Source: Octopus vulgaris
Taxonomy: Eukaryota
Assembly (NCBI GenBank): GCA_951406725.2
Contig: OX597840.1
Location: 33,604,001 to 33,668,000 of the forward strand
Direction: 5' to 3'
DNA length: 64,000 nucleotides
Below are positions 1,282-60,626 of this stretch, piece after piece. Below the pieces are notes generated by a model. That model was given only the letters and a program-made list of their open reading frames with translations. It was not told where the DNA came from and did no database searches. The translations under genes were made by a program, and so were the position numbers. Position 1 is the first letter of the stretch, and the number at the start of each line of letters is the position of its first letter.

Positions 1282-1695
1282 CTGAAACAGACAGAGAGGT
1301 ACTTATATATATACTGAGGTACTTATATATACCGAGGTACTTATATATACAAACACAAGTCAAATGTGTAAAAGCTTACGGTCGTTTCCTTCTCAGAAGG
1401 GTACCAATCCAAGGTACTTTCCCTTCCACTACCCTCAATGAATGTGCACCCCAAGAGCTATCCTAGTCTCCACTAAATTCTTCAATCTTTCTTCCACTAC
1501 AAGAATATATTTTTCGCAATAATTCCTATATACGAGAGTATATATATATATATATATATATATATATGCTTTATTTAAAATCAGCAGAAATATAACAAAA
1601 GCTGTTACTCAGAGTTTCACGTTCCCGTTCGTCGGACAGTTTTGTTAAAAATGAAAAAAAGAAATGTTGTTATTCAGGCACTCGACTATGAATCT

Positions 1696-1736
1696 ACTGT
1701 CCGACGAACGGGAACCGTGAAACTCTGAGTAACAGT
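1696..1736 (+). ncRNA. minimal type I hammerhead motif, U4C core variant; inverted copy at 1601-1640
   Basis: ACTGT-CCGACGA-ACGG gaa CCGT-GAAA-CTCTGAG-TA-ACAGT; all three helices pair. Confidence 0.72.
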
Positions 1737-3242
1737 TTTTGTTATATTTCTGCTGCTTTTAAATAAAGCATATTACTCTAACTCTGGTATTTGAGTACTC
1801 TTTTTTCTACCTTGTTTCACATTTATGTGCATACTCCGGTATATATATATATATATATATATATATATACACACATATGTTTTTTTCATCTCTGTGTGCT
1901 TATTTTCTCTTATTCGTTTCTGTTGAAGAGCGTAGGCTCGAAACGTGGAAGACTTTTTCATTTTCCCGAGCATCAAACTAAGACCCTCGTTGTTCATAAA
2001 CCTGCCTTTTTCTATAAATTTCAACTATACATATATATATATACTGGGGGTGTTGAAAATTTCTTGGTTTTAAGGGTTTCGTGAAGGTCCTGGTTGGAGG
2101 TTCCAACGTCTGAGTTCTATTACAGGTCTTATAAAAACTCTAGGTGCGCTGCAATAAGTGTGTAAATCTGAAAGGGAACTATGTCGATACAATCATAATT
2201 AATTGATCCTCCTGTATTTTGTTTTACCCAAAGCCAGAAGCTTTTGAGCATCCCTTGTCCTCCACCCCCGCTTAAAAACCGGTGTTGGTGTGTTTACGTG
2301 CCCGTGACATTAGCGGTTGGTCATAAGCTTAAAAATAAAAATAAACACTGGATTCAACTCATTCAACTAAAAATTCGTCAAGGTGATGCTCCAGCATGGC
2401 AAAAGTCAAATGACTGAAACAAGTAAAAGATAAAAAGAAAAATGATTAAAAAAAACTACGGAAAAGAATGAGAAAAAACATAAAGAGCAATGACTAACAA
2501 GGTGATAAGAGTAGCCTCCCTTGGGTGATATATTCTGTAACTATAGGTTGTCTCCCTTCAAAAAGTCATTTTTTTTTTTATATCTATATATAAAGCTGAA
2601 GTTGTCTGTGTATGGTAGGTTTGGTAGCCTTCAACTAACACTGTCTCCTCCGAGACCCTGCGGCTCAAGTTGACCAAAATTGAGAGTATGATAGAAGGAG
2701 GCTTGCTCTTCATTCCGTAGAAGAAAAAATTCAAATCGGACCATGTTAACACCAAAAATTATTTACATCAAAAAGGTACTTTTTTTTTCTATGAAAATCC
2801 CTATTTTTTACGATTTTTTGACTGCTGTGTCGCCATGATATATATATATATGCATGTTTATGCGTGTGTGTTGAGTGAGTGTGTGTGTGTGTGTGTGTGT
2901 GTGTGTGTGTGTGTGTGTGTGTGTGTGTGTGTGTGTGTGTGTGTGTGTGTGTGAGAGAGAGAGAGAGAGTGTGTGTGTGTGTGTGTGTGTGCGTGTGATT
3001 GTGTGCATTTTTTTACTTTGTCTCTCCATCATGACTTGACAATTGGCGTTGGTTTGTTAACGCCTTTGTAACTTAGCGGTTCGACAAAAGACACCCGATA
3101 CGGTGAGTACCAGACTTATAAAAAAATAAAAAAAGACAATTACTGGTGCCGATTTATTCGTAGTGTTGCCCCAGCATGTCTGCAGTCCATTGACTGAAAC
3201 AATTAAAAGATTTCAAAAGAATGTAAATATAAGATATCTCAC

Positions 3243-3339
3243 CATGACTGTCCTTGTTTTCTGTTTGGTTTTCTATATATTCGTCAGTCAGCCAATCACA
3301 ATTCAGAGACAAGGCACGTGATACTTCTCGACTAACCAC
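3243..3339 (-). CDS. KIAA2012-like exon (phase 0-1): VVSREVSRALSLNCDWLTDEYIENQTENKDSH
   Basis: tttttaaatag| acceptor and CATG|gtgag donor; 97 nt; it bridges the phase 0 and phase 1 neighbours exactly. Confidence 0.75.
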
Positions 3340-58003: not shown

Positions 58004-58574
58004 GCCCTGATGCAGTACCATGCCCTGATGCAGTACCAGGCAGTGGCTCTCATGGCTTCTGATCTTAACTGATTGGAAGTGTTATCATGTACATTGTTTT
58101 GTCTTGGTATAAAAGATGGGCTACAGCAAATATTCTGCTCAATACCACAGATTTGCTTGTCAGTTGTTTGACCTTAACCAGTTGAGCATGTCCCTTCGTG
58201 GCTGACGATATGTGCATCTCTGATCATGAGCAGGGGTAGTGGGGGAGCATCATAGCCATGTGTTGAGAGGGGTTCTTTGGGGTTTGAATAATTCACCTCT
58301 GGAAACATGGGTGTTTCGTTCAACATCCTCAACCAACCCTTATTCAGAGACCTTTTGAGCGGGATGGGTTACTTGACCAGAAGAAAATTCTAACTGGGCC
58401 CCACCTGCAAGGTCATGTGCTGTTTATCTTGATATGAGATCACCATGTCGCGCACATATGGTTGTGATGCATGTGCCTAGTGTATCCTTATCAGACGGGT
58501 AGTCATGATGGGTATATTGGGCTTCGTATATTTTACCCCAGTGTCACTTTGATGTCATGCACTGCTCTCTCACT
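58004..58574. mobile_element. about 570-bp non-coding repeat inserted in (AAT)n; truncated copy at 4586-5064
   Basis: Two highly similar copies, each flanked by (AAT)n on both sides; internal pieces recur at about 35800-36150. Confidence 0.75.
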
Positions 58575-60516
58575 CAATAATAATAATAATGATAATAATA
58601 ATAATAATAATAATAATAATAATAATAATGATGATGATGATGATGATGACTACGACGATGGTGATGATGATGATGTTAATAATAGTGATGATGGTGATGA
58701 TGATGATGATGATGATGATGATGATGATGATGATTGTGATGATGATGATGACGATGATGATGATGATGATGATGATGATGATGATGATGCTGGTGGTGGT
58801 GGTGTTGATGATGATGATGATGATGATTGTGATGATGACGACGATGTTGATGATGATGATGATGATGATTGTGATGATAATAATGAGGATGATGATGTTG
58901 ATGATGATGATGATGATGATGATGATGAGGAGGAGGAGGAGGAGGATAGTGAATATATACAGTGCTTGGGCTAAATTTGACGATTTTTGATGCTTCCTTT
59001 TTATCATGGACAGGTTGATATTGGCAACCAGTCCGTGGCGTCGGAAAGACATGGGGGTGGGGACTAGAAGCCATCTAAATATCGGAAAGAGTTGTTACCC
59101 GTATCATTTTTCGCGCCGGGTGTCAAAACGCCGACATCATGACTGCTGGTCAATGCTCTGTGACCACTGTAAAGGTGGCATGGTCAGCTGCAACGGAGAC
59201 TTCAAAGCCGTGGCCAGCGGGAAAGGACACAACACGTGTTCCAACTGCATCCGCACGCCGAAATTCATTCAACAACTGATGAAAAGGGGCTTAGGCTCAA
59301 TTCAGACTGCTATGTGAAGCCGCTAGAGACTGTGGTCAAACTTTGGCCGGAGAGGGTTGCTGCTGGGAGGTCATATGTGTGGCAGAAGGATTCGGCGCCT
59401 GTCATGCCTCTAGAAAGTATCAGAAGTTGTTGTCGGAGATTTTCTACTACTTCGCCAGCTCCGATTTCTAGCTCCCTGATTCCCACCATTGTGATCCCAC
59501 CGATAGTATATGTGAGGGCCTATTGAGAAAGACACCAACGTGCGAGTGGTTGAGTACTCCACAGACACATGTTCCCTTAACGGTGTTCATAGGGAGTTTC
59601 AACGCAACACAGAATGTGACAAGGTTGGTCCTTCGAATTACAAATACAACTCATTTTTGCCAGGTGAATGGACTGAAGTAAGGTGGAATAAAGTGTCTTG
59701 CTCAAGGACACAAGGCTCCGCTGGATATCGAACTCACGACCTTACGATTGTGCGCCGAATACCCTAACCACTAAGCCACGCGCCTTCACTGCCTGAGACA
59801 ATAAGGCCGAACTAGTGGCCAATATCAAGGAGGTGTTCGAAGATCTTCCCATGGTGACAGTACGGAGGGCGTGCACTAGGTTTCAGAACCGTCTTGAGGC
59901 CGTGGTGGAGGACTGTAGATGGGATTGTAGATGGCTATTTTGAGTAAGCAATTATCTCCCAGCCATAATCAAGTTGATAGTTTTTCATTAAAAAAAAAAC
60001 AAAAAAAACAGGCGCAGGAGTGGCTGTGTGGTAAGTAGCTTGCTAACCAACCACATGGTACCGGGTTCAGTCCCACTGCGTGGCATCTTGGGCAAGTGTC
60101 TTCTGCTATAGCCCCGGACCGACCAATGCCTTGAGAGTGGATTTGGTAGACGGAAACTGAAAGAAGCCTGTCGTATATATATATATATATGTGAGTGTGT
60201 TTGTGTGTCTGTGTTTGTCCCCCTAGCATTGCTTGACAACCGATGCTGGTGTGTTTACGTCCTCGTCACTTAGCGGTTCGGCAAAAGAGACCGATAGAAT
60301 AAGTACTGGGCTTACAAAAGAATAAGTCCCGGGTCGATTTGCTCGACTAAAGGCGGTACTCCAGCATGACCGCAGTCAAATGACTGAAACAAGTAAAAGA
60401 GTAAAGAGTATTCGTATTTCTGGATAGGCTGTTAGGCTTTGCAGCGTGGAAGGTGTTTATAAGCCATTTAAGAAACACATAAAAGCCGTTAGATTCACTT
60501 CAACATTAAAATTTAA

Positions 60517-60626
60517 TTTGTCAAAATATTTTCGTCGCTTTGAGACCGCGACCTGTTCACTGACAAAATTCCATGTTTGTTAGTGAACAGGTCGCGGGTT
60601 CAAGGTGACGAAAATATTTTGACAAA
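60517..60626. ncRNA. back-to-back pair of minimal hammerhead motifs, G3-C8 variant (60517-60567 minus; 60576-60626 plus)
   Basis: TTTGTCA-GTGAACA-G-GTCGC ggtctcaaa GCGAC-GAA-AATATT-T-TGACAAA: 7-bp helix I, 5-bp helix II, palindromic helix III. Confidence 0.65.

Follow-up and report, generated by a model that had tools for sequence, protein, structure and literature searches.

Variant-core hammerhead motifs in AT-flanked insertions of Octopus vulgaris, probable fragments of Penelope-like elements

The window analyzed here, a 64,000-nucleotide stretch of the Octopus vulgaris genome (assembly GCA_951406725.2, contig OX597840.1, positions 33,604,001 to 33,668,000), carries short insertions with hammerhead ribozyme motifs whose probable source is Penelope-like elements (PLEs). 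Scans of the window located 16 full motifs and one half copy in 12 insertions spanning positions 1598-60627, a density of about one motif per 4 kb. Together the insertions occupy roughly 3,070 bp, or 4.8% of the window, and a relaxed scan of the window revealed no further hammerhead motifs near AT runs. The motif set has minimal type I topology (helix I, 7-nt box, helix II, GAAA, helix III and UH). Core positions follow the standard hammerhead numbering, and families are lettered A to G.

1567-1839, both strands: insertion A, inverted pair (A1 and A2) between AT runs
1598-1643, minus: A1 hammerhead, box CCGACGA (C4) starting at 1635, H17 at 1606, 3-bp helix II
1693-1739, plus: A2 hammerhead, box CCGACGA (C4) starting at 1701, H17 at 1731, 3' tail about 71 nt longer
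1870-2030, plus: insertion E1, AT runs at either side
1912-1955, plus: E1 hammerhead, box CTGTTGA (U6) with extra A, starting at 1920, G17, likely decayed
3564-4001, both strands: insertion B1/B2, inverted pair with AT runs at either side, 3' ends +126 and +277 from the box
3606-3697, minus: hammerhead of B1/B2, canonical box CTGATGA starting at 3689
3717-3808, plus: hammerhead of B1/B2, canonical box CTGATGA starting at 3725
7779-7956, minus: insertion E2
7865-7908, minus: E2 hammerhead, box CTGTCGA (U6) with extra A, starting at 7900, C16.1, likely decayed
10985-11132, minus: insertion C1
11031-11076, minus: C1 hammerhead, box TTGAAAA (U3-A8) starting at 11068, 6-nt palindromic helix III
28397-28726, minus: insertion F1
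28499-28541, minus: F1 hammerhead, box CCGACGA with extra A, starting at 28533, weak helix I
32476-33113, both strands: insertion B3/B4, inverted pair with 72-nt partial tandem, 3' ends at +288 and +127
32684-32771, minus: B3 hammerhead, box CGGATGA (G4) starting at 32763
32834, minus: half motif in the B3/B4 partial tandem
32979-33066, plus: B4 hammerhead, box CTGATGA starting at 32987
33990-34105, plus: insertion E4
34012-34055, plus: E4 hammerhead, box CTGTTGA (U6) with extra A, starting at 34020, H17 at 34047, passes the strict descriptor
43386-43516, minus: insertion C2
43433-43478, minus: C2 hammerhead, box TTGAAAA starting at 43470, G17, likely decayed
44502-44640, minus: insertion C3, 5' boundary approximate
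44550-44595, minus: C3 hammerhead, box TTGAAAA starting at 44587, H17 at 44558
45790-45977, plus: insertion G1, 5' boundary approximate
45861-45903, plus: G1 hammerhead, box CCGACGA with extra A, starting at 45869, 2-bp helix I
60433-60765, both strands: insertion D, inverted pair of a high-copy family, direct repeat at its flanks
60516-60568, minus: D1 hammerhead, box GTGAACA (G3-C8) with extra G, starting at 60560
60575-60627, plus: D2 hammerhead, box GTGAACA (G3-C8) with extra G, starting at 60583, H17 at 60619, tail of about 57 nt

The hammerheads of B1/B2 have a long helix II and an 8-nt palindromic helix III, and those of D a 7-bp helix I and a 5-bp helix II. E, F and G combine a CTGTYGA or CCGACGA box and an extra A with a GAGC-loop-GCTY helix II, and helix II and the downstream sequence are common to all three. 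Because of this kinship the motifs fall into five unrelated groups (seven families if E, F and G are split), not the at least six dissimilar families counted in an earlier note on this DNA.

That note had reported about 16 hammerhead motifs with positions 3 and 8 always in Watson-Crick register; all 16 are present, and all 16 have the pair (C-G, U-A or G-C). The covariation that it read from this pair is genuine. With only five unrelated groups, it amounts to two independent swaps, one to U-A (family C) and one to G-C (family D), rather than 16 observations. G5, A9 and GAAA are invariant, U16.1 is found in 15/16 motifs and a non-G at position 17 in 14/16. An extra nucleotide lies between 9 and 10.1 in seven motifs. 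Helix III, described earlier as usually palindromic, is self-complementary in 15/16. The boxes listed in the note were all found, and CGGATGA (32763, minus strand) has to be added to them. Only three motifs have the canonical CUGANGA box, bearing out the prediction that CUGAnGA searches would be blind to the variant cores.

A strict descriptor, composed after the motifs had been seen and not demanding the 3-8 pair, gave 10 matches in the window, nine of them paired at 3-8; the sole unpaired match falls within microsatellite-like sequence. The same descriptor averaged 0.21 matches (0.08 paired, maximum one) over 100 block-wise dinucleotide shuffles of the window. Likewise, a pattern for E/F/G matched five times in the window and never in 100 shuffles. 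The shared type I topology claimed earlier thus stands in strict form for 9/16 motifs. The remaining seven deviate at one element each: A1 by its 3-bp helix II, B3 by G4, C2 and E1 by G17, E2 by C16.1, and F1 and G1 by having just 1-2 contiguous helix I pairs. Cofolding gave an intermolecular helix III for A1, A2, B2, B4 and all three C motifs; D and E lacked it. Folding z-scores were weak, falling below -2 for D1 and B4 only among six motifs tested. No Rfam hammerhead family matched the window at gathering threshold, and no hammerhead model was among 12 Rfam matches over D at E<=10; the 150 of 305 matches that an E-value scan listed proved to be artefacts of microsatellites and hairpins. The E/F/G pattern had one match in a metagenome scan (L001), which lies antisense to an unrelated open reading frame (ORF) and is attributed to chance, and a viral scan with the D pattern returned no matches.

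Conservation between copies was assessed in B, C and E, two additional copies per family being set against one reference. Differences occurred at 1/66 core, 3/128 stem, 11/114 loop and 82/398 flank positions. U6 is present in 3/3 E copies and U3-A8 in 3/3 C copies, marking these letters as family traits rather than decay. Since D1 and D2 stem from one event, public sequencing runs were aligned to D2 (60562-60800), which matched 11,595 contigs from DNA run X1 and 1,293 from run X15; X21 contributed nothing and X22 only 18 reads, too few to be informative. In the X1 and X15 contigs no alternative letter at 4% or more was listed for the D box, GAAA, helix III or position 17. Four motif variants were listed, each lying in a loop or retaining pairing; T-to-C at 60606 and the G.U pairs at 60609 and 60622 keep helix pairing. 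Two X15 contigs carry A-U in place of G-C in helix II with the G3-C8 box unchanged.

The window is rich in microsatellites, with 91 AT runs of at least 12 nt. (AT)5 was found 68-288 nt 3' of 14/16 motifs; for random unmasked positions, the share with such a run no more than 300 nt away was 32%. By insertion, 11/12 end in (AT)n (p ~4e-5). The association with (AT)n asserted in the earlier note therefore holds for all but the D pair, which has no AT run 3' locally. Other D copies run into TA-rich sequence, with loose ends in X1 at 60708 in 94 contigs and at 60765 in 196. A 7-9-nt direct repeat around D is a likely target-site duplication; such duplications are not discernible where an insertion lies inside a microsatellite. 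Four of the 12 insertions are head-to-head inverted pairs, and in 4/4 the 3' tail is longer on one side. Both of the independent B insertions show the same pair of 3' ends, at +126/+127 and +277/+288. B3/B4 includes a 72-nt partial tandem, and 5' ends vary within families B and C. No coding signal was detected in three frames of the D tail. The D tail (60699-60765) also appears in 16 reads of run X22 as a head-to-tail tandem with a 31-nt spacer, lacking the hammerhead and less than 90% alike; a satellite may have arisen from the tail. The CpG asymmetry of D at G12 was too noisy for use. F1 (28533), G1 (45869) and B3/B4 share a short TTGGYGA motif that lies 30-60 nt upstream of their boxes and leads into a pyrimidine-rich tract; it may serve as an intron or promoter signal.

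The motifs very likely are minimal hammerheads of PLEs, a membership inferred from this architecture: an inverted partner, a one-sided tail, a partial tandem and one likely target-site duplication. Statements from the literature refer, here and below, to the available parts of the cited papers. PLE insertions are described with an inverted copy and a one-sided tail (PMC8557442), and the PLE tail is produced by two reverse transcriptase (RT) start sites (PMC11167929). We therefore favor, at a probability of roughly 0.8, the explanation that the 16 minimal type I folds are 3' pseudo-long terminal repeat fragments of five to seven microsatellite-targeting PLE families, probably Neptune-like. The parent GIY-YIG endonuclease would nick (AT)n, and the parent RT would begin copying the RNA at either of two 3' start sites and stop early. 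Such early-terminating target-primed reverse transcription would leave an ORF-less piece of 100-350 nt, often accompanied by an inverted second piece and a one-sided tail. Where parents were full-length and in tandem, their ribozyme likely cleaved the transcript as a dimer joined by the palindromic helix III, perhaps aided by the element's protein. Cleavage in the parents would have kept core and stems under selection while permitting the compensated 3-8 swaps of C (U-A) and D (G-C). Copies in the window are likely mostly relics, as 7/16 fail the strict descriptor and opposite-strand pairs cannot dimerize in one transcript. Two of two D copies have a YAG ending at G3 and 3/3 C copies a CAG just before U3. 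G3 of D may, speculatively, be fixed by doubling as the G of a splice-acceptor AG, an idea drawn from the PLE of Drosophila virilis, in which an intron ends at helix I (PMC4209133).

The same short insertions could instead be non-autonomous elements resembling short interspersed elements (SINEs) or retrozymes, transcribed and mobilized as units by PLE proteins and not products of truncation. Every copy is indeed short and without an ORF, family D is very abundant, and 108 X1 contigs share a loose 5' end at 60576, though the window copy simply ends there; moreover, non-LTR (long terminal repeat) retrozymes have been proposed as PLE derivatives (bioRxiv 10.64898/2026.07.22.740005). Self-BLAST of the window, however, found no tandem monomers each bearing a hammerhead, and the 5' ends vary within C and B. 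The motifs are also minimal rather than canonical, and PLE insertion typically produces inverted pairs with tails. We consider this alternative improbable. Accordingly, of the PLE/retrozyme population postulated earlier, the diverse PLE-type minimal hammerheads are retained and the retrozyme label is dropped.

Several observations weigh against truncated PLEs under past selection for cleavage. No RT or GIY-YIG domain was recognized by Pfam among 292 stop-free fragments of at least 48 aa, a scope that leaves aside shorter or frameshifted remnants; the scan was of limited sensitivity, as visibly mariner-like pieces gave no match either, and lack of an ORF remnant is expected of 5'-truncated copies. 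The one-sided tails measure 57-160 nt, compared with the usual 30-40 nt. Conservation of core over flanks, the check proposed in the earlier note, was borne out for B, C and E, with differences at 4/194 positions (2%) in core and stems versus 93/512 (18%) in loops and flanks, but the comparison is not fully independent (one shared reference, B1 and B2 a single event, end gaps counted). For D, polymorphism in the motif (3/53 positions) and flanks (18/137) did not differ significantly (p=0.11), and the variant table, which omits the D1/D2 difference at 60581, may under-report close to where alignments end. Finally, U6 allows the box of E to pair with helix III, a competing fold that E prefers in folding.

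This last point bears on whether catalysis has been lost in the families with variant cores (E with U6, A/F/G with C4 and possibly D with G3-C8), their shape being kept for another reason such as protein recognition or splicing signals, or through recent descent. Such a loss concerns activity and is compatible with PLE origin. A6C and U4C are known to lower activity (PMC3088659), PLE insertion in vitro was unaffected by catalytic mutants (PMC11167929), and Naiad PLEs have spread without hammerheads (PMC8557442). Against it, the 3-8 swaps are exactly compensated, the helix variants in D retain pairing, including the A-U replacement in X15, and the invariant G5, A9 and GAAA are hard to account for without past catalysis. 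Inactivity of these families is possible, though less likely than not.

Which PLE clade supplied the fragments is a separate matter. Neptune elements have a microsatellite insertion bias (PMC8557442). This bias is shared by Naiad and hence not diagnostic of the Neptune clade, which is defined by RT phylogeny and a CX2-5CxxC linker between RT and endonuclease. The earlier note had pointed to Naiad, and some families could be Naiad ends whose hammerheads were overlooked owing to variant cores. Naiads favor a (TA)n target, form inverted and tandem structures and occur in Octopus; the Naiad consensus file labels Naiad_Ovul HHR_half_core, the published core-motif search relied on a cuganga string, and the 3' region of Naiad_Obim holds CTGTTGA ahead of a hairpin and GAAA, which might be a half core or a variant one (PMC8557442 and its supplement). 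According to the same source, though, Naiads lack canonical hammerheads, relaxed descriptors too gave none, and cephalopod Naiads are remnants, whereas the window has full folds, with family B canonical. Our comparison, made by short-motif searches in both directions rather than full alignment, gave no matches of short B, D and E motifs in the Naiad consensus file (line breaks could hide one), and A/F/G and C motifs matched only unrelated, apparently internal sequence. Conversely, the Naiad_Obim motif matched just two unrelated window sites at three mismatches. A Naiad source for any of the families is therefore very unlikely, and Neptune-like PLEs, given the lack of canonical hammerheads in Naiads, fit better.

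Around the insertions lie exons of a trypsin-like S1 peptidase on the plus strand (41842-42018, 46306-46515 and 50308-50511; Pfam Trypsin). The middle exon gave four matches among six candidates, all octopod proteins with 80-85% identity. C2 and C3 lie antisense between these exons, and G1, with its weak helix I, lies sense. A rhodopsin-family seven-transmembrane receptor fragment is present on the minus strand (55942-56208), as are long low-complexity open frames (527-1375, 11147-11848 and 19485-20465), possibly host-gene exons, which had no Pfam match in the parts scanned. Four foldbacks flanked by AT runs (7476-7718, 8191-8308, 43076-43273, 52221-52384) were not counted for want of a valid box, nor was the GAAA-palindrome at 52087. 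Together with the segment at 51852-52167, these foldbacks or inverted fragments are mostly beside AT runs; those at 52221-52384 and 51852-52167 carry GAAA and an 8-nt palindrome. They may come from PLEs that have no hammerhead, or be PLE ends whose truncation reached beyond the ribozyme. Repeat copies at 9207-9462 and 50916-51174, 82% identical and beside microsatellites, have a long-range inverted repeat and no hammerhead core. Segments 24131-24575, 40701-41130, 33566-34009, 36300-37800 and 49452-49790 we take by eye to be mariner/Tc1-like, LINE-like (long interspersed element) and R2/R4-like remnants, labels that Pfam did not confirm; a weak zf-RVT match lies at 37231-37470, in the LINE-like remnant. 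SINE-like families are present in many copies (e.g., 4080-4240, 5980-6580, 16735-17112 and 22226-22885).

Standard censuses would miss 13/16 of the motifs described here, and Rfam reports none. The available text on O. vulgaris counts 190 PLE families, 6.83% of the genome, and leaves hammerheads unmentioned (PMC13282606). If the window is representative (4.8% versus 6.83%), cephalopod hammerhead counts are badly underestimated, and the hammerhead offers a handle to class short unassigned AT-flanked repeats as PLE ends. Natural G3-C8 and U6 families would also allow one to ask whether PLEs need cleavage, a question unsettled by in vitro work. As a tentative extension, the density of one motif per 4 kb, extrapolated to ~2.8 Gb, would give octopus genomes several hundred thousand hammerheads borne by PLEs. 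That would exceed the density of any genome counted in the literature compared, and might include high-copy G3-C8 and U6 families still cleaving as dimers, with G3 maybe fixed by splicing. If true, octopus would offer a natural deep-mutagenesis library for the hammerhead core, one that Rfam and CUGAnGA searches fail to see.

Already published are minimal hammerheads in PLEs, the U3-A8 pair with its UUGAAAA box, and the abundance of PLEs in O. vulgaris. Metazoan PLE hammerheads (Cervera and De la Pena 2014, PMC4209133) resemble the octopus motifs in type I topology, short helix I and palindromic helix III, and in U-rich upstream sequence, many families per genome, solo copies and opposite-strand pairs, reported there at 100-700 bp. 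They have an extra nucleotide at 9-10.1, are mostly solo truncated copies and show low dimer activity; the UUGAAAA box occurs in the Schistosoma PLE Cercyon. Unlike them, family B has a 53-57-nt helix II domain, and A and C open helix II with A-U. G3-C8, C4 and U6 appear in 0/56 representatives in Fig. S3 of that paper, whose descriptor fixed the core. Natural U3-A8, U4C and A6C hammerheads are on record (PMC3088659). In the literature searched we found no natural high-copy G3-C8 or U6 family, no octopus hammerheads and no such density, although the variant survey of Lunse et al. 2017 may cover them; Xenopus tropicalis, by comparison, has ~9,000 per genome (PMC4209133).

Non-LTR retrozymes are likewise ORF-less with type I hammerheads in animal genomes, but comprise tandem 170-400-nt units with canonical hammerheads and yield circular RNA (PMC7229834); the window insertions form no such tandems. 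The Neptune hammerhead of Acropora digitifera shares with E/F/G a 4-bp helix II of like layout, the extra A and a palindrome of 4 nt, and differs at box positions 4 and 6. PAc, a Poseidon element of Anolis carolinensis, likewise has two 3' ends and a one-sided tail (PMC11167929), with the difference that its tail is the ORF start, whereas the D tail is without coding signal. In PAc the C3G/G8C change partly rescues the PLE hammerhead, and cleavage needed protein (PMC11167929). G3-C8, a partly working engineered double mutant in that system, is natural and family-wide in octopus family D.

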